Position numbers and translations under genes: made by a program. DNA of 43,991 nucleotides from Escherichia coli O157 typing phage 9: the sequence record KP869107. One strand, written 5' to 3'. Numbering within the stretch: position 1 is the stretch's first letter; each line of letters begins with the position of its first letter. The notes under the pieces are model-generated. The model did not search any database. It was given only the letters and a program-made list of their open reading frames with translations, and was not told the origin of the DNA. Shown here piece by piece: positions 1 through 43,991 of this stretch.

Positions 1-270
1 ACAAATTTGCCTAATTGCCCTGGCCCACCAAGAGGAACAAAGTTATTCATCACGGCGTTGTTTGCGCCGGGGTCATGATGCACAGAATCCCCGTTTTTTG
101 TCCTGCTCTCCCTCTCTTGGTTAAATGACTGGTTATATGACTGGTTCTGGATCCCGTTTTTGGGATCATTCAACATCCCGTTTTTGGGATCATTCAACAT
201 CCCGTTTTTGGGTATATTCCCGTTTTCGGTAACATTACCGTTTTCGGGTTCATTGACCCCCTCTCGGTTG
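1..270. repeat. Direct repeat, copy 1 (matches 39093-39374 except one 12-bp unit)
   Basis: Read directly: acaaatttgcctaattgccctggcc... recurs at 39093; copy 1 has 2 units of atgactggtt(a/c)t, copy 2 has 3. Confidence 0.95.
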
Positions 271-479
271 CCTTTAATGTTCCCGTTTTTGGTTATATTA
301 AGAGAGAAAACCCGCACTCTTTTTGTCGCTCCCTTTCTCTCTCCGGTATCTGAAATAAGCCCCATTTTCATGAGCGATATAAGCCCGGCCTGCACGGTTT
401 TTTTATTCAGGCAAGTGTCTTTAACGAGGCGTTCTATGCTGGGGTAGCAGAGGTTATATTCATCGGCTCTGTCAGCCAT
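1..479 (-). CDS. Replication initiator, lambda O-like (N-terminal HTH domain plus iteron-encoded linker); C-terminus lies beyond the window start
   Basis: Minus-strand translation from ATG at 479: MADRADEYNLCYPSIERLVKDTCLNKKTVQAGLISLMKMGLI... (replication-initiator HTH signature), continuing through the iterons as NG-rich repeats; sits upstream of the P-like gene in the circular map. Confidence 0.6.
   Translation of the reverse strand, partial: MADRADEYNLCYPSIERLVKDTCLNKKTVQAGLISLMKMGLISDTGERKGATKRVRVFSLNITKNGNIKGNREGVNEPENGNVTENGNIPKNGMLNDPKNGMLNDPKNGIQNQSYNQSFNQERESRTKNGDSVHHDPGANNAVMNNFVPLGGPGQLGKF
151..300. repeat. Origin-like iteron array (about 6 copies of a CCCGTTTT(T)GG core, two perfect 24-bp units) inside the O-like gene
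   Basis: atcccgtttttgggatcattcaac at 151-174 and 175-198, degenerate copies to about 300; same arrangement as the lambda ori within gene O. Confidence 0.6.
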
Positions 480-569
480 CGAGAGCAGTATGAGCTTTAA
501 TGATGAGCTGCCTGGATCTGTCTCCCAAGCCCAATCTGTTGCATGTCTGCTCATGATTAATCTCCGCTA

Positions 570-770
570 TCAGCTTGAGTGTTGTGGGGAGGAATTAATC
601 ATGATCTGCTTAATCTCTGCCCTGATGCGACGGTTTGATTCCATGGTGCACTCAACACAGTGTCCGTTGTAAACCCAGCGTTCACTGTCATGTCCGTGCT
701 TACATTGTTTTCCGGTGTAATAGCGTTTAAGTCCGCGCTTTGCGGCATCAATACGTGTAATGATTTCCAT
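570..770 (-). CDS. Hypothetical small Cys/His-rich protein in the cII-equivalent position
   Basis: ORF with C-x-H-G-H...H-C-x-x-C cluster; track start at 833 is TTG, first ATG at 770; lies between Cro-like gene and O-like gene. Confidence 0.35.
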   Translation of the reverse strand: MEIITRIDAAKRGLKRYYTGKQCKHGHDSERWVYNGHCVECTMESNRRIRAEIKQIMINSSPQHSS

Positions 771-875
771 GGTAAGCCCTGTTATTAGTATTGGGATTAC
801 GGTTATTTTGTGCTGACACAAAAAAAAGATCAACCATATTTGGTTTTTTATTACCTTTGAGGTACGAATAGATAT

Positions 876-899
876 GAAAAGACCGCCGGATGGCGGTCT
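876..899 (-). terminator. Rho-independent terminator after the Cro-like gene
   Basis: Hairpin agaccgcc-ggat-ggcggtct followed by T-tract on the minus strand. Confidence 0.5.
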
Positions 900-920
900 A
901 CAGAGGGTTGTGGCTGGATA

Positions 921-1151
921 TCATGAGTAGAAGAAGTATGCCAGTTCTGCTTTTGAGCGCAGCCATTGTCTTGTTTTACAGGCTTTAAAAAGCCCATTCA
1001 TCAATACCTTACCTGGCATTTTGCGCTTACCTGTTAAGTGAGTCTGGATATAGTGACTCGTCGTTCCGGCTTCCTGTGCGAAGGCTTCACGCTCATCCGG
1101 AGTAAGTGCAAGCCAGTGCTTTTTGAAATCGAAATGTCCGTTATCGCTCAT
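921..1151 (-). CDS. Cro/CII-like HTH regulator, divergent from the repressor gene
   Basis: 76 aa, ATG at 1151; HTH-like segment LTPDEREAFAQEAGTTSHYIQTHLTGKR; divergent from the repressor-like gene across a 154-bp operator region. Confidence 0.5.
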   Translation of the reverse strand: MSDNGHFDFKKHWLALTPDEREAFAQEAGTTSHYIQTHLTGKRKMPGKVLMNGLFKACKTRQWLRSKAELAYFFYS

Positions 1152-1187
1152 AGCTATTGCCTGATATTTATTTCAGATAATAAATAT

Positions 1188-1250
1188 TCACCCATAAGGT
1201 AACAAAAATCAAGGATAGTTACCTATGGGGTGCATTTACCTGTTGGGTAA
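1188..1250. promoter_or_regulatory. Operator cluster: three TTACC-N5-GGTAA-type sites between the divergent repressor and Cro-like genes
   Basis: Sites at 1188-1202 (TCACCcataaGGTAA), 1219-1233 (TTACCtatggGGTGC), 1236-1250 (TTACCtgttgGGTAA). Confidence 0.5.
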
Positions 1251-2498: not shown

Positions 2499-4255
2499 AA
2501 CCGGGAATTTATTTCGACATCAGCAACGAAGACTACCACGCCGGTGACGGCGTGAGTAAGTCGCAACTGGACATGGTTGCCAAGAATCCGTCGCTTCTTA
2601 AATGGGTCCAGGCAGCACCAGAAGACGAAGAGAAAAAGTCTGCACTGGATATTGGAACCGCATTGCACTGTCTGCTTCTGGAGCCTGGAGAATTCGACAA
2701 ACGCTTCATTGTTTCACCGAAGTTCGATCGTCGGACGAAACAAGGTAAAGCTGACGAAGAAGCATTTCTTCGTGATGTAGCGGATATGGGGATTACGGTA
2801 CTTGATGCCGAGCAGTGGCGGAAACTGGAGCTGATGCGTGATAGCGCAATGGCTCACCCGGCGGCACGCTGGATGCTGGAAGCACCTGGTTTCTGCGAAG
2901 CATCAATGTACTGGAATGATGAAGATACTGGTGAGTTGTGCCGCATTCGTCCAGACAAATGGCTGAACGAGCACAACGTGATCGTCGACGTGAAAAAGGT
3001 TGCAGATATGGACCGTTTTGCACGCCACATCGAGGAATTCCGCTACCACGTGCAGGACGCAATGTACCGCGAAGGCGCAATGAGGGTTACTGGTCAGCCG
3101 CATGGTTTTTTCTTTCTTGCCGTGAGCGAAAGCATTGATTGTGGTCGGTATCCGGTACGCGTGTTCGAGCTGGATGCGCCGGATGTCGATGCCGGGCACG
3201 CTCTGTTCCGCCGGGATCTGAATACCTATCACGAATGCCGCATAAATGATGAATGGGGCGGTGTGGAAATCATTAAACGCCCTGAGTGGGCACGCAAAAC
3301 AGGATATGTACATATGAGCAACGACATCGCAAACATCAACGCACCAGTAGACACAGCAATCGCTGGAACTGCTGCAACTATTTTCAGCCCAGACGGCTTG
3401 AACCAACTGATGAAATTCGCCGAGGTAATGGCGCAAAGCCGCGTAACGGTACCGGCGCACCTCGCCGGGAAACCAGCTGATTGCATGGCCGTGGCAATGC
3501 AGGCTGCGCAGTGGGGAATGAACCCGTTTGCCGTGGCTCAGAAAACCCATGTTGTGAACGGCACGCTAGGTTATGAAGCCCAATTAGTAAACGCAGTTAT
3601 CTCAACGATGTCGCCAACAAAAGATCGCATCAACTACGAGTGGTTCGGGCCGTGGGAACGCGTGATCGGTAAGTTTGTTGAGAAAACATCCAAAAACGGC
3701 AATCCATATATCGCACCAGGCTGGACTCTAAAAGACGAAGAAGGCTGCGGTGTTCGCGTATGGGCAACCATGAAGGGCGAGGATCAACCTCGAGTGCTTG
3801 AGTTAATGCTGTCTCAAGCACAGGTAAGAAACTCCACACTTTGGGCCAGTGATCCGAAACAACAACTCGCATACCTTGCGACAAAACGCTGGTCTCGCTT
3901 GCACTGTCCTGACGTAATCATGGGCGTCTACACACCAGACGAATTACAGGAAACGGCACCGCGCGTTGAGCGAGACATTACTCCGCAAACGACCACTGCT
4001 GCGGGAATGAACAGTCTGATCAACGCTAAACCAGTGAAAAAGCCTGATGAGCAAACTCGTAAAGCGGATAGCCGTGATCCAGAAGAAATGCTGATGGCCT
4101 TTACCAGCGCAGCGATGAATTACAGCACTGTCTCCGAACTGGATAAGGCTTACAAATACATTGCACAAAAACTTTCAGATGATGACGAACTGCTGGCAAA
4201 AGCCACCGACGTTTACAGCGTTCGTCGGGAAGAATTAAACGAAACATCTATGTAA
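2495..4255 (+). CDS. Recombination protein: N-terminal PD-(D/E)XK exonuclease domain fused to a C-terminal RecT/Bet-family annealase domain
   Basis: 586 aa; N-term DIGTALHCLLLEPGEFDKRFIVSPKFDRRTKQGK (PD-(D/E)XK / exonuclease VIII-like signature); C-term MAVAMQAAQWGMNPFAVAQKTHVVNGTLGYEAQ (RecT/Bet-like); single uninterrupted ORF. Confidence 0.65.
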   Translation: MKPGIYFDISNEDYHAGDGVSKSQLDMVAKNPSLLKWVQAAPEDEEKKSALDIGTALHCLLLEPGEFDKRFIVSPKFDRRTKQGKADEEAFLRDVADMGITVLDAEQWRKLELMRDSAMAHPAARWMLEAPGFCEASMYWNDEDTGELCRIRPDKWLNEHNVIVDVKKVADMDRFARHIEEFRYHVQDAMYREGAMRVTGQPHGFFFLAVSESIDCGRYPVRVFELDAPDVDAGHALFRRDLNTYHECRINDEWGGVEIIKRPEWARKTGYVHMSNDIANINAPVDTAIAGTAATIFSPDGLNQLMKFAEVMAQSRVTVPAHLAGKPADCMAVAMQAAQWGMNPFAVAQKTHVVNGTLGYEAQLVNAVISTMSPTKDRINYEWFGPWERVIGKFVEKTSKNGNPYIAPGWTLKDEEGCGVRVWATMKGEDQPRVLELMLSQAQVRNSTLWASDPKQQLAYLATKRWSRLHCPDVIMGVYTPDELQETAPRVERDITPQTTTAAGMNSLINAKPVKKPDEQTRKADSRDPEEMLMAFTSAAMNYSTVSELDKAYKYIAQKLSDDDELLAKATDVYSVRREELNETSM

Positions 4256-38048: not shown

Positions 38049-38849
38049 TTACTTGATAAATCCTGCTGCCTTTCCTCGCCTGTATTCCTCCATCAGCCAC
38101 TGCGCCGGTGTTATTCCCCCCAGGGTGGCGGCGTTAGGCATGCACCCGAAACTTCGCCCTGGTGGATGGTAAACATCTCTCCCTGTGTCCGGAGGCGTAC
38201 TCATGGGTTCTGGCTTTGCCTGTATGCTGATCACCGGATCGGGTATCTGCTGTCCGGAAGCCACCTTTTTCGCCCAATCATCGAGCAGCCTGCGCGCGTG
38301 TTTCTCAACCTCAATCTCGCTAAGCTGGCGCTGATACATTGCACGGCGGGTATCACATACGACCCAGTACATAACCGGATGCCGCCACGGGAATCTTTCG
38401 GGACCACCAGGATATAAACTTTTTTCCTTGCTGTACCGGTGAAACTCCGCCATCACATCGTCAATGGTGACGCCAAGAACCATCTTGCTGTCTTTACACC
38501 ACTTGATGAATTGCCCTGGCGACGGCCAGAACGGAGACTCACTGGCGCGGGCGTGGCGCATACCAGCAGAAACCTGTTCACGGGTTCGGATCCCCCCTTC
38601 GGCAAACGCAGCAATCCACTGCTGTTTTGCAGCAACTTCCTGCTCTGGCGTCTTCAGGTTGGTTACCACTGCCGCCGGAAACAGTTGTTTCAGCTGTTTG
38701 AAAAGGGCATCAACAAGCCTCTCTGCTGACATGTTCACCACGTTGTCATTGTTGGTGTACTGATGCTCATAACCTGACATGCGAGAAAGGGCTTCTCCGT
38801 CACGGTTTTGTATCGCGGTAAAAACGTTGTTCACAAGAAATCCTCCCAT
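38049..38849 (-). CDS. Replication protein P-like (helicase loader)
   Basis: 266 aa; segment GIRTREQVSAGMRHARASESPFWPSPGQFIKWCKD aligns by eye with lambda P (GITTMEQVNAGMRVARRQNRPFLPSPGQFVAWCRE). Confidence 0.7.
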   Translation of the reverse strand: MGGFLVNNVFTAIQNRDGEALSRMSGYEHQYTNNDNVVNMSAERLVDALFKQLKQLFPAAVVTNLKTPEQEVAAKQQWIAAFAEGGIRTREQVSAGMRHARASESPFWPSPGQFIKWCKDSKMVLGVTIDDVMAEFHRYSKEKSLYPGGPERFPWRHPVMYWVVCDTRRAMYQRQLSEIEVEKHARRLLDDWAKKVASGQQIPDPVISIQAKPEPMSTPPDTGRDVYHPPGRSFGCMPNAATLGGITPAQWLMEEYRRGKAAGFIK

Positions 38850-39374
38850 GCTTCAGGGCTGTTCCAGTGCGGAACGTTGTTATCAGGTAATGTTGATTGC
38901 TTCTGTCTGCTAATCTGCAGCCGCCTTGCCAGCTTCTGCTCCCACTGTGCCTGATGGTATGCCTTACCCTCAGCCATCCAGTAAATTCTGAACTCTGCAA
39001 GTTCCTGTGCCGTTGGCAGACTGTCCAGGTAGATCCCCTGCAATGAGCTTTTCCGAAGAAAGTCATCTGATGGCTGCCATTGTTCATGCATGACAAATTT
39101 GCCTAATTGCCCTGGCCCACCAAGAGGAACAAAGTTATTCATCACGGCGTTGTTTGCGCCGGGGTCATGATGCACAGAATCCCCGTTTTTTGTCCTGCTC
39201 TCCCTCTCTTGGTTAAATGACTGGTTATATGACTGGTTATATGACTGGTTCTGGATCCCGTTTTTGGGATCATTCAACATCCCGTTTTTGGGATCATTCA
39301 ACATCCCGTTTTTGGGTATATTCCCGTTTTCGGTAACATTACCGTTTTCGGGTTCATTGACCCCCTCTCGGTTG
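38831..39374 (-). CDS. Replication initiator O-like, C-terminal part plus iteron-encoded linker; N-terminus lost in the N run
   Basis: Minus-strand frame open from the N run through the iterons (MLNDPKNG repeats, NQSY repeats) to a stop at 38831; overlaps the P-like start. Confidence 0.6.
39093..39374. repeat. Direct repeat, copy 2 (truncated by N run at 39375)
   Basis: Identical to 1-270 apart from an extra 12-bp tandem unit at 39229-39240. Confidence 0.95.
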
Positions 39375-39474: not shown

Positions 39475-40077
39475 CACGGCATTCATCGCATCAAGAACCG
39501 GTGATAAATCCTCACCACCATTACCTTCTGCCTGCTGTGCTGATTGCTGAACACGGGACTGGAGATAGTTATTTTTACGGATGAGCGAAGCCACCGCGTC
39601 ACCAATTTCCGGATACATCTCCCTGATACGGGCAATCTGCTCATCAGAAATTTTTTCGTTTTCCGGTAACGGTGTGGGCTTCATACCGGCCTGGTGGATC
39701 TGAGACGTCAGCAGTTCCACCCTGCGTTTTTCTTCAGCTATCTGCCCACGAAGAAGTGCGGCTTCCTGTTCGGCCCGTTGCTTACCGGAACGTTCAGCCT
39801 CAAGGACTTCATAGGGAATGACGTGTTTACCGTCGCGGGTGAGCACCCCCTTCGCTTCCGGCTCCTTCACGTCCTGCGTCTGCTCCACACTGGCATCCGG
39901 CGTCGGTGCCACATTGTTATCGCCCGTCTGAGTCTGTGCTTCCTCATCCGCATGTTTTTCCGTGGTATCTTCCGTCACGACGTCCTGTGCGTGACTGTCA
40001 ATATCCACATCCCCAAGTCCTTCCAGCATTTTTTCCAGTTGTTCCGGGGTTTCTTCACCCGTAAATTCAAAATCCAT
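39475..40077 (-). CDS. Putative scaffolding-like protein of a P22-type head module, 3' end lost in the N run
   Basis: Acidic N-terminus and coiled-coil-like middle; located downstream of the portal as the scaffold gene is in P22-like phages. Confidence 0.35.
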
Positions 40078-40186
40078 AAATAACTCCGCATGGTCTGTTT
40101 ATCGGACAGATCCGAATGGTTGAGTAAATAAGGCTTATCGCTGCCCCCGCGAATAAGCGCACCGCTCCCGGAACGCTTACCTCCGG

Positions 40187-40216
40187 AAACAAAAAACCCC
40201 GTACGATGACGGGGTT
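40187..40216 (-). terminator. Rho-independent terminator after the P22-type portal gene
   Basis: aacccc-gtacgatgac-ggggtt with T6 on the minus strand. Confidence 0.45.
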
Positions 40217-40235
40217 CAGTTGAAGCCAGAGTTTT

Positions 40236-42336
40236 CAGAGCGACATTTCATTCATCCGCTGTTGTAACGTATACAGCATCTGTTGCTGAAGAACGTCCTG
40301 CTCCTGTTCCATATTCTGTACGCCGGTAATGATTTCTGCCGTATGTGCCTGGTTAAGCGCATNNNNNNNNNNNNNNNNNNNNNNNNNNNNNNNNNNNNNN
40401 NNNNNNNNNNNNNNNNNNNNNNNNNNNNNNNNNNNNNNNNNNNNNNNNNNNNNNNNNNNNNNNNNNNNNNNNNNNNNNNNNNNNNNNNNNNNNNNNNNNN
40501 NNNNNNNNNNNNNNNNNNNNNNNNNNNNNNNNNNNCTGCCTGTTGTTGCTGAAGTGCCTGTTGTTGTGCCGCTACTTCCTGTTCTTCCGGCGTCATTTCA
40601 TCCGGTGATTTTGGCGTCCCCAGCGCAGCACGAATACGCTCAACAAACTCCTGTTTCTGCGGCACATCCAGAAGATTAACCCACAGGTCGAGCACAACAG
40701 CCTGCACCTGAGGCGGCAGCCCCTGAATAACCTCTGACATTCTCTGTGCAAGCTGTGCCTTAAACGCCGGTGTCTGCTGAACAGGCGCCAGCGCAATATG
40801 TGTATTTAACCTTGAAATATCATTGGTCAGTTCACCATTATCACCTTCAGCATTGAGGACAATGGTCTGGCGACGCTGGCGATCATCGCGATTAATCACC
40901 ACTGCATGATTACGGCGTTTTTTCAGGTCATCGAGAAGATAAGCCAGCAACAGTCTTCCCACCTGCTGGCAGGCAAACTGGTAGTTATCGTTGATTTCCG
41001 CAAGGGTTGTGGCCCCCTGCTCCACCAGGTTACTGATAGCCACGCCTGACGTCGCACCTGAATCCTGCCCGAGAAATGCGGAATACACTCCNNNNNNNNN
41101 NNNNNNNNNNNNNNNNNNNNNNNNNNNNNNNNNNNNNNNNNNNNNNNNNNNNNNNNNNNNNNNNNNNNNNNNNNNNNNNNNNNNNNNNNNNNNNNNNNNN
41201 NNNNNNNNNNNNNNNNNNNNNNNNNNNNNNCTGCATGACCTGAAACTGCTGGCTGGCAACCTGAAAATCCTGCTCAACCCGAAAAACATCTGCGACACTT
41301 TTCTGATTTTTTCGGACCGGATTCAGTTTAATAATGCCATCCGGACGTTCGATCTGCTCCATCAGGTCGTTGTCTGACAACTGGGTGGCATCCTCGTCCA
41401 TAATCACGCGTTTGGCCTGAAGCAACCAGGTCAGCTTGATACGACGAAAATTCACCTCATCCTGTGCCGGAATGGCGCGGGAAATTAGCCCGTATGGCTC
41501 CCCGGTTTTATCCTTTCGGTATCCCCAGAAAGGAACCAGCGGAAACATCCCCTGCGGAGCACTACAGGGGCGATCCACAATAAAGTGTGGCCCGACAAAC
41601 CAGGCTTCACGAATACGGCTTACCCGCCCGACTTTCACCTGAACCCGCCCGGATGCCACAGCTACCGCCTGCATCAGATTATTTTTATCAAAGGCCACCA
41701 CCCGTCCATTACTGAGTTCAATCACCGGAAGACGCTCGAATGTACGGTAATAAACCACCTGAAGCAGCACACGACGGCGTTCACGCTGAAGCCATTCGTT
41801 CTGCTGTCGATCCCATGACTGATACTCTTCCCATGCACTCATCAACGGACTGGGCTGGCCTTCAGTAACCGTGGTATCGACAAAACCACGCCAGTCATCA
41901 ATGGCATAATCGATAACCTGAGCCATTCCCGGGAATGTAGCTTTTGCCTCATCGGTATCCATCCAGCGGCGACGCATCAGCCATCGGCAGTCACTTAAAT
42001 CAGCCTCCCGGCTCAGCCAGTCCCAGAAAACCTCATTCCGGCTGACAGTAGACACCTTAAATTCAGGCCCGAACGGATCGCTGTTTCGTCTGACCTCCAC
42101 CCAACTGAGGCCCGCCTTGATTTGTTCCGCATAGGCATCAGAGCGGGCTTTATTCATATTGCCAAGGCGGCATGCATCGGCAAATTCAGCATTAATAGCT
42201 TCAGCCAGTTTTTCAGTTTCATCATCTGGCTCGTCTGACATCACCACCAGATCAGTCCGTGTTTTGGCCTCCATTCCCAGAACGCCATCGACGGTAGGCG
42301 CGATGAGGTTATGGATAGTCATCGGCTGACCGCGAT
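40236..42336 (-). CDS. Portal protein, P22-type, interrupted by N runs (5' end inside the N run at 42337-42558)
   Basis: Long portal-sized reading frame with a Gln-rich C-terminal helical region (QEVAAQQQALQQQQA); true C-terminal frame ...QQRMNEMSL ends at 40236. Confidence 0.55.
40363..40535. other. Run of 173 N inside the portal gene
   Basis: Read directly. Confidence 1.
41092..41230. other. Run of 139 N inside the portal gene
   Basis: Read directly. Confidence 1.
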
Positions 42337-42558
42337 NNNNNNNNNNNNNNNNNNNNNNNNNNNNNNNNNNNNNNNNNNNNNNNNNNNNNNNNNNNNNNNN
42401 NNNNNNNNNNNNNNNNNNNNNNNNNNNNNNNNNNNNNNNNNNNNNNNNNNNNNNNNNNNNNNNNNNNNNNNNNNNNNNNNNNNNNNNNNNNNNNNNNNNN
42501 NNNNNNNNNNNNNNNNNNNNNNNNNNNNNNNNNNNNNNNNNNNNNNNNNNNNNNNNNN
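42337..42558. other. Run of 222 N spanning the terminase/portal gene junction
   Basis: Read directly. Confidence 1.
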
Positions 42559-43991
42559 GAGCCATCCAGTGTGTGGTTCTGCGTTTATCCGTTTTCTGTT
42601 TTACCCTCACCGGCATTCTGGCGCGCATCTCCTGGGCAATCATGTAGCTCATGAGCTGATCATCAAAGCAGCCTTCCTGTGCATTCATGGAGCCTTTCGC
42701 GTCATAAACGTAGGTGTTCATTTCCGATAATGTGCCTGACCAGCGGATCCCTGATATTCCATTATTCAGAAGCGTTTTCATTCCTTCGGTCAGAACAGGT
42801 TTGCTCTGACGGGTTGTCAGCCAGCCAAGGCGGGGCGTATCGTCGTCATATGCCTGGTCAAGATGCTGTTCGTTGTAGATATAACGTGTCGGATAGAGTT
42901 CCCGGAGTTTCAGGATAACTGCATGTCCGTGATTATTACGCTCCGGCCCCACAAACGCGTTGTTATACATACGACAGACCTGCGAAATGAGATGAGCAAA
43001 AAGTTCAGCATCGAGATGCCCGAACCAGTGAGCCACCTGCTCGCCATTACTGCGTTTGACAACATCCAGCGATGAGCGGTCTCCGTGCTCCAGCCCTTCG
43101 GCAGTATCTGCCCCANNNNNNNNNNNNNNNNNNNNNNNNNNNNNNNNNNNNNNNNNNNNNNNNNNNNNNNNNNNNNNNNNNNNNNNNNNNNNNNNNNNNN
43201 NNNNNNNNNNNNNNNNNNNNNNNNNNNNNNNNNNNNNNNNNNNNNNNNNNNNNNNNNNNNNNNNNNNNNNNNNNNNNNNNNNNNNNNNNNNNNNNNNNNN
43301 NNNNNNNNNNNNNNNNNNNNNNNNNNNNNNNNNNNNNNNNNNNNNNNNNNNNNNNNNTGTTCATCAGTAAGCGTGATGTTCATTGCCTTCTCAACCGCAG
43401 AAAAATACGTCATTTTTTCCCGTGACAGCTTCAGCCCGCTTTCCGGCACTCTGGCGCTGTATTTAGGATCCTGCCACCAGGCGTAAAAATGGAATTTATA
43501 ATCCTGTGCCGTCAGCAATAAGCCTGATGCAGTGATCTCCTGTGCTCGGTTACTCATCTCGTAAAAATCACCACCCACGCCTTCAGCAGTGGACTCATCA
43601 AAAATAATGCATTCATCAGAGACGGCATTAAGCGTACCGGTTCGCAGTTCTTTCGCCTTAGCCGGATATTTCGCGCAAATTTTGCCGTGCTCTGAGATAT
43701 GCAGGCGCTGCACCGTACCTGAACGGAATGAGGTTGCCACCTGGATACTCGAGCCGTGACCAAACAGGATATAGCCACCGCTGGCACCGCTACGACGTTC
43801 AACGATGGTGAATGAGGCTCTCAGCCAGTCAGGGAGATGATCAAACGGTACAGCAATTTTTGTGCGGAAAATTTCACTGGCAGCCTGTTTATCCTGAGCG
43901 ACGATCCCGCATTTGAGATGCGGAATGAATAATGCCTGGTCGAGAAGATAAATATCAATGGCTGTGGAAAATCCCAGCTGGCGCGCTTTCA
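42559..43991 (-). CDS. Terminase large subunit, P22-type; N-terminus beyond the window end, interrupted by an N run
   Basis: Minus-strand frame from the window end: ...ILFGHGSSIQVATSFRSGTVQRLHISEHGKICAKYPAKAKELRTGTLNAVSDECIIFDESTAEG...; after the gap ...VAHWFGHLDAELF...DDQLMSYMIAQEMRARMP (nuclease-domain-like). Confidence 0.55.
43116..43357. other. Run of 242 N inside the terminase gene
   Basis: Read directly. Confidence 1.

Follow-up and report, generated by a model that had tools for sequence, protein, structure and literature searches.

A candidate replication origin inside the initiator gene of a phiV10-like phage

The DNA analysed here (sequence record KP869107, one strand of 43,991 nucleotides; hereafter the window) comes from Escherichia coli O157 typing phage 9 and opens inside a gene for a predicted replication initiator, in which a series of short direct repeats is embedded. 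Iterons inside O-like genes are textbook knowledge for the phages lambda, P22, and L, and an earlier note on this DNA had likened the repeats to ori-lambda within gene O. The question raised by the locus is whether these repeats matter as DNA, in particular as an origin of replication, or as the coding sequence of a repetitive peptide. About 160 related sequences in total, comprising distant species-level loci and close viral contigs, were compared. Judged from this comparison, the repeats are conserved as DNA and not as protein. Together with the analogy to known origins, it makes positions 114–295, in the segment encoding the inter-domain linker of the initiator, quite probably the vegetative replication origin of the phiV10-like phage.

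The initiator and its repeat array

Bases 1–39092 represent one complete, circularly permuted genome of a phiV10-like Uetakevirus. Window 1–1200 shares 99.0% identity with Escherichia phage phiV10, and E. coli O157 typing phage 10 is 100% identical at window 125–1200. The initiator gene is read from the minus strand across the ends of this genome; the joining of position 1 to 39092, on which the earlier note had based its reconstruction, was correct despite the chimeric scaffold (see below). The gene start at 479 was wrong. Translation begins at an ATG at 554–552 behind a GGAG ribosome-binding site; every homologue retains the 25 additional N-terminal residues (MSRHATDWAW...), and phiV10 is annotated with the same start. 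The resulting protein of 271 residues is the counterpart of phiV10 gp43 (275 residues, annotated as 'replication initiation protein') and matched PHROG 1032, 'replication initiation protein', over its full length (E = 2.9e-107).

Two Pfam domains were detected, HTH_36 (PF13730) at residues 18–67 (E = 1.8e-10, 40.9 bits) and DnaT (PF17948) at residues 184–252 (E = 1.1e-15, 57.5 bits), both with a cut-off of 25 bits; the DnaT match starts with the codon that ends the 5' part of the gene. The C-terminal part also matched solved structures of E. coli DnaT in phmmer searches (4ou6, 4e-20; 9zbt, 7e-21; 6aep, 8e-21). According to these matches, the initiator is composed of an HTH_36 N-terminal domain and a DnaT-like C-terminal domain. 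A fold search with the N-terminal domain returned winged helices generally, with iteron-plasmid initiators among many others; the structure model used for it drew on a shallow alignment of 36 database relatives. Nearly all of these relatives are short or truncated (47–143 residues), and some have a frameshift inside the repeats or immediately ahead of them. This may reflect a search favouring short proteins, or gene calls and assemblies that break at the A5/T5-rich iteron array.

The gene adjoining the initiator (38049–38849, minus strand) encodes a P-like helicase loader, as the earlier note had proposed: its product matched Pfam Phage_lambda_P (PF06992, E = 1.5e-56) and PHROG 109, 'P-like helicase loader' (E = 2.4e-92). 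The term 'O-like', applied to the initiator in the same note, is apt for its layout and presumed function and inapt for its protein family. No match to Pfam PF04492 (Phage_rep_O) was found at E <= 0.1, against 5.7e-36 for lambda O itself, BLASTP of the initiator against lambda O gave no match, and hhalign of the two returned a probability of 7%; membership of the lambda O family was dropped on these grounds. The hhalign alignment placed residues 41–83 of the initiator on O residues 73–115, a segment of O that consists of the recognition helix and wing, and in both proteins it ends immediately ahead of the iterons. Being built of HTH_36 and DnaT-like domains, the protein would work in a lambda-O-like manner without belonging to that family.

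The repeats occupy the region between the two domains: the homology block that includes HTH_36 comprises residues 1–85, the iterons residues 88–134, and the DnaT domain follows. Six cores matching CCGTTTTYGG were counted on the plus strand, at 154–163, 178–187, 202–211, 220–229, 238–247, and 283–292, where the earlier note had reckoned with about six copies inside the initiator open reading frame (ORF). Read on the coding strand, the core is CCRAAAACGG. Successive repeats start 24, 24, 18, 18, and 45 base pairs (bp) apart. Two perfect 24-bp units, ATCCCGTTTTTGGGATCATTCAAC, are present at 151–174 and 175–198, and the repeated peptide ...NIPKNGMLNDPKNGMLNDPKNG... is encoded on the minus strand, both as previously described. 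The best copies hold the dyad ATCCC-GTTTTT-GGGAT (coding strand ATCCC-AAAAAC-GGGAT). Between iterons five and six lies a decayed unit (core 258–267), in which positions 262–265 and 271–272 vary among relatives. In the whole window of 44 kilobases (kb), 0.19 matches to CCGTTTTYGG are expected by chance, and 12 matches were reached in none of 100 shuffles. The unique genome contains a seventh match, at 3690 on the minus strand, and no further copies. Since this is the only other copy of the motif in the 39-kb genome, the initiator has no other evident target.

The iteron-like sequence at 88–101 is not counted among the iterons: no other spot varies as much among close relatives, and it is probably not functional. 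On the plus strand, antisense to the gene, adjacent iterons can pair at 161–204 (GGGAT...ATCCC followed by TTTTT), which gives two weak terminator-like hairpins. They are probably a by-product of the dyad symmetry and could hinder antisense transcription across the putative origin.

Conservation of the repeats as DNA

All copies in this phage share a single reading frame and specify a regularly repeated peptide, and the number of units varies among relatives, as it does in slippage-prone tracts. The array might accordingly be a slippage-generated PKNG peptide linker, selected, if at all, as protein and devoid of a function as DNA. Distant relatives speak against such a linker. The query was an alignment of the N-terminal domain (residues 1–85), with the repeat region excluded, and one genome per species was scanned. 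This yielded 80 species-level loci with 41–87% identity, from Enterobacterales, Vibrio, Pseudoalteromonas, Acinetobacter, Marinomonas, Sphingomonadales, Desulfovibrionaceae, and other hosts. A loose motif, CC-N6-GG with at least four A/T among the six central positions, was counted in the 320 bp that immediately follow the domain-coding part on its 3' side. It occurred 363 times there (14.4 per kb) vs. 231 times in 228 kb of flanks (1.0 per kb), and 77 of the 80 loci contained it, mostly in 3–11 copies. The phages GF-2, Her, and AP22 and the PPompW prophages carry the motif next to the N-terminal domain as well.

The strict core CC[AG]AAAACGG was found in all three codon phases, in which it specifies unrelated peptides: 86 copies in phase 1 (PKNG/PENG), 25 in phase 2 (QKR), and 7 in phase 0 (PKT). 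It occurred in at least two phases in 21 loci, because 17-bp spacings alternate with 24-bp ones. Synonymous positions are fixed. When P[KE]NG peptides were defined from the protein sequence alone and their codons read afterwards, proline was encoded by CCC in 65/65 cases vs. 23% elsewhere in the same ORFs (nominal p = 1.5e-39), lysine by AAA in 51/51 vs. 70%, and asparagine by AAC in 62/65 vs. 46%. Non-conservative replacements of the central residues (KN, KI, EN, IY, KF) leave the pattern CCC-AT-rich-GGG intact in GF-2, Her, and AP22. Taken together, the spread over three codon phases, the fixed synonymous sites, and the presence of the core beside the same domain in 77 of 80 loci point to a constraint on the DNA. 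The first two of these largely refute the peptide linker, which we regard as extremely improbable.

In an Acinetobacter subclade with a 7-residue insertion in the domain, the cores are CCAACAACGG/CCAACGTTGG, vs. CCAAAAACGG in the other loci. This is suggestive of covariation between the domain and its repeats and is confounded by phylogeny, as is the comparison of domain residues with iterons, in which no single discriminating residue was found.

Close relatives gave a similar picture. Among 80 viral contigs with a 99–100% identical N-terminal domain, 56 variants of the region were found. Whole units of 18 or 24 bp have been gained or lost in the phiV10-like relatives, with strict iterons numbering 4–9 and complete ORFs coding for 263–295 residues. 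In 44 colinear alleles, the iteron cores were variable at 2 of 60 positions, compared with 13 of 90 non-core positions of the array (p = 0.03). ORF nucleotides 343–440 (window 211–114), which hold the three distal iterons and the adjoining 12-mers, had 2 variable sites in 98 vs. 74 in 718 elsewhere (p = 0.005). Third codon positions in this segment were depleted of variation, 1/33 vs. 46/239 elsewhere, which again is at odds with selection on the peptide. Changes were concentrated at 88–101 and in the spacer that separates iteron 1 from iteron 2.

The array travels with the DNA-binding domain. Homologues of the N-terminal part only match through residues ~133–154, just past the 12-mers, and then continue with other C-terminal domains and partner genes; homologues of the C-terminal part only begin to match at residues 161–183 and are without the array. 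The DNA-binding domain and the repeats thus move together, like lambdoid origin-specificity modules. In PHROG 391 the N-terminal type of the present initiator (residues 1–154) is combined with the C-terminal type of lambda O (O residues 140–292), so that lambda O matches this family in its C-terminal part only and the initiator studied here in its N-terminal part. The epsilon15-type relatives compared were Tyrion, SPN1S, and TL-2011b. These three have only the DnaT-like C-terminal domain in common with the initiator, and they have a different N-terminal domain and no comparable array. Both Tyrion and SPN1S belong to the genus Uetakevirus, and no genus is given in the record of TL-2011b. In SPN1S no P-type loader gene directly follows the initiator.

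A module boundary at residues ~147–180 lies near the array, and adjacent iterons yield the weak terminator-like antisense hairpins described above. Both would be consistent with the array being the target of another factor or process (a nucleoid protein of the host, a mosaic joint acting as a recombination hotspot, or defence/exclusion) that merely co-travels with the N-terminal domain. Against this, the array strictly co-occurs with one winged-helix domain in hosts ranging from Acinetobacter to Desulfovibrionaceae. Co-occurrence across such different hosts argues for recognition by the winged-helix domain rather than by a host factor, and we consider a target of another kind very unlikely.

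The putative origin and known replication systems

Next to the array, at 114–146, lies a second repetitive element. It reads GAACCAGTCATA-TAACCAGTCATT-TAACC on the minus strand (window 146–114), and Tandem Repeats Finder reported 2.4 copies of a 12-mer, with the tandem TGGTTAWATGAC at 118–146. In its position and its repetitive make-up it is reminiscent of the 13-mers in the unwinding elements of oriC and iteron plasmids, and it is a candidate DNA-unwinding element or a candidate second recognition element. In 66 of 74 relatives, two or three GAAYC repeats with a spacing of 12–13 bp follow the last iteron. Their density there was 49.7 per kb vs. 2.0 per kb elsewhere, and they occurred in two codon phases (100 vs. 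80 occurrences). The 80 bp after the array had a mean A+T content of 63% vs. 56% for the whole locus, and exceeded the value of the locus in 63 of 74 relatives. The GAAYC 12–13-mers may represent a sequence-specific unwinding element. They are situated 10–60 bp past the last iteron, are often followed by AAAAATAAAAA, and encode a 'QNQS' motif, which resembles protein conservation in alignments.

By analogy with ori-lambda and iteron plasmids, initiation might proceed as follows. Dimers of the N-terminal winged-helix domain (residues 1–85) would bind the six dyad-symmetric A-tract iterons and form a nucleoprotein complex. The iteron-bound complex would strain or open the adjoining 12-mer region (114–146). 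The DnaT-like C-terminal domain would engage the opened DNA, the lambda-P-type loader, or both, and the loader would deliver host DnaB.

Several points weigh against 114–295 as an origin. The putative unwinding region is barely AT-rich in this phage (54% vs. 51% for the genome). The fold match of the N-terminal domain is not specific to initiators, and homology of the DNA-binding domain to that of lambda O is not demonstrable. DnaA boxes in the genome are at chance count, with none near the array; lambda replication needs no DnaA boxes either. The cumulative GC skew, with its minimum at the scaffold junction, was uninformative, since its monotonic drift follows gene orientation. A literature search that did not extend to the original phiV10 and epsilon15 genome papers yielded no publication on the origin of phiV10-type phages or of epsilon15, and the phiV10 record, in the region examined, has only coding-sequence and terminator features and no origin feature. 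Finally, neither the copies in one locus nor the loci in one clade are independent of each other, so that the p-values given above overstate significance, which leaves the qualitative result unaffected.

The weak AT-richness beside the array would also suit repeats that serve as initiator-binding sites for regulation (autorepression of the operon, copy control, or handcuffing), with initiation at another site, and plasmid iterons are known to have control functions as well. This alternative is unlikely, as judged from three observations: the genome contains no second cluster of the motif, the family as a whole has an origin-typical element after the array (the 12–13-mers with AT-richer DNA), and the array lies within the gene and not at its promoter. 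An origin at 114–295 remains our preferred reading.

The layout of ori-lambda, with iterons inside the initiator ORF and a P-like loader gene adjoining, is present here, as the earlier note had claimed. In both phages dyad-symmetric A-tract iterons lie in the inter-domain linker segment of the initiator gene, from codon 117 of O in lambda, two codons past the Pfam domain, and from codon 88 here, three codons past it. A further element follows on the promoter-distal side in both, and the P gene (Pfam Phage_lambda_P) is next. The iterons themselves are alike, ATCCCTCAAAACGAGGGA and variants in lambda and ATCCCAAAAACGGGAT and variants here. Lambda has four iterons of 18 bp with a spacing of 20–24 bp, whereas the phage studied here has six of ~16 bp with spacings of 18 and 24 bp; tandem 12-mers take the place of the 40-bp strongly AT-rich stretch of lambda, and the C-terminal domain is DnaT-like, unlike that of lambda O.

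Lambda, P22, and L each have distinct iterons inside the coding region of O or gene 18, and the origin of L was predicted from the rule that iterons lie within the initiator's own gene (Zaworski et al., PMC8022706). Gene 18 of P22 and L follows the same rule as the gene studied here, with the iteron set of each origin-binding protein located in its own coding region. The L repeats, TGTCCAACGGA, differ from the present ones, and the partner gene in P22 and L codes for a DnaB-type helicase (gp12) in place of a P-type loader; P22 and L were compared by their published description.

A closer resemblance was found to a group with a homologous HTH_36 N-terminal domain, which comprises Edwardsiella phage GF-2 ('replication initiation O-like'; PHROG 391), Vibrio phage Her, Acinetobacter AP22, and the PPompW prophages. 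Identity to this group was 36–41% over the full-length alignment and 47–58% over the domain alone. The group shares the iteron core, the spacings of 24 and 17–18 bp, and the GAAYC/QNQS element after the array, and differs in its C-terminal domains and in the genes that partner the initiator: next in GF-2 is a P gene, and in AP22 a DnaB-type helicase gene.

The iteron plasmid systems RK2 oriV/TrfA, pPS10 RepA, and F RepE likewise combine winged-helix initiators with direct repeats adjoining an unwinding element with 13-mer-type repeats. They differ in having intergenic iterons, Rep proteins with two winged-helix domains, and, usually, DnaA boxes, of which none were found near the present array.

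Outside phages, the DopC/DopE pair of Cellvibrionales and Oceanospirillales consists of a domesticated HTH_36 and DnaT-C protein followed by a protein of the lambda P family; DopC is reported to lack iterons and not to constitute an origin (Brezellec et al. 2017, PMC5509034). Gp43/gp44 has an identical two-gene architecture. DopC is a domesticated chromosomal gene without iterons, whereas the gene considered here belongs to a phage genome and has its iterons intact. Since the architecture is the same and the iterons are intact, phiV10-type modules are a closer viral model for DopCE than lambda O/P, and gp43/gp44 is a plausible viral counterpart of this helicase-matchmaker pair.

More speculatively, the winged-helix domain, the iterons, and the GAAYC 12–13-mers may form a single portable origin cassette with one code (CC-RAAAAC-GG) across gamma-, beta-, and alphaproteobacteria and Desulfovibrionaceae, recombined with various helicase-recruiting C-terminal domains (DnaT-like, lambda-O-C-like, and others). 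The 12–13-mers would then be read on single-stranded DNA, as TrfA and RepE read the repeats of their DNA-unwinding elements, and the phiV10-type HTH_36–DnaT/P pair, not lambda O/P, would be the viral form behind DopC/DopE, domesticated by loss of iterons. We propose this combination tentatively, as a possibility that is rather doubtful when all of its parts are taken jointly.

A phage origin embedded in an initiator gene is an arrangement of a well-known kind. The present data extend the textbook arrangement to an initiator family other than that of lambda O and overturn nothing; the putative family-wide origin cassette with a conserved 12–13-mer element and the link to DopC/DopE are mildly novel. 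Phages of the phiV10 type gain a concrete, testable candidate origin for annotation, and phiV10 itself is used in the detection and typing of E. coli O157. For engineering or recoding of the initiator gene, the bases that should be left untouched are now indicated. HTH_36 initiators form a large family in prophages of many proteobacteria, where the origin could be read directly 3' of the domain-coding segment.

The scaffold and the adjoining gene

The coordinates of the features are given in Table 1.

Table 1. Features of the candidate origin region and adjoining sequences in the window
Feature	Position	Strand	Description
Iteron array	151–295	-	Six direct repeats, residues 88–134 of the initiator
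Tandem 12-mers TGGTTAAATGAC and TGGTTATATGAC and a partial copy	114–146	-	Coding strand GAACC/TAACC-AGTCAT
Degenerate seventh iteron-like sequence CCCCGTTTTTTGT	88–101	-	Point variation concentrated here in the 44 colinear alleles
Region coding for the N-terminal winged-helix DNA-binding domain	300–554	-	Residues 1–85, Pfam HTH_36
Initiator gene, 5' part	1–554	-	Residues 1–184 of 271; ATG 554–552, GGAG ribosome-binding site upstream; PHROG 1032
Initiator gene, 3' part	38831–39092	-	Residues 185–271 and stop codon (38831–38833); most of the DnaT-like C-terminal domain
Lambda-P-type helicase loader gene	38049–38849	-	Overlaps the initiator end; Pfam Phage_lambda_P, PHROG 109
Second partial copy of the origin region	39093–39374	-	Terminal redundancy of the scaffold; three 12-mers, not two; ended by a run of N

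Bases 39093–39374 repeat positions 1 to ~275 with one extra 12-bp unit and are followed by a run of N. In all, five runs of N (100–242 bp) come after this terminal redundancy of 282 bp. Positions 39475–43991 contain fragments of the portal and large-terminase region of Stx2 phages (933W, VT2-Sakai) with 100% identity and N gaps between them; these fragments are unrelated to the phiV10-type genome. Since a complete phiV10-like genome is followed by N-gapped fragments of an Stx2 phage, the record is a chimeric scaffold.

A scaffold of this kind, with gaps and with two copies of the region that differ by 12 bp, might have produced the repeats or their copy number as an assembly artefact. Comparison with the phiV10 replication region, as proposed in the earlier note, revealed the same array in phiV10 and seven other phage records (96.6–99% identity), and it recurs in the 80 independent viral contigs. 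An artefact is thereby refuted for the array and can be put at practically nil; only the number of 12-mers, two or three, is uncertain. The 12-mer TGGTTATATGAC is present twice at 118–146 and three times at 39210–39250, and of the 80 related viral contigs only the one corresponding to phiV10 itself was seen to have three units. The difference reflects either population heterogeneity or a collapse of repeats in the assembly.

At the other end of the initiator gene, its stop codon and the longest P-like ORF share 19 nucleotides (38831–38849). In the phiV10 annotation the P gene starts at the GTG within TTGTGA, i.e., with an overlap of 4 nucleotides. Under either start of P, the initiator and P-like genes are probably translationally coupled.

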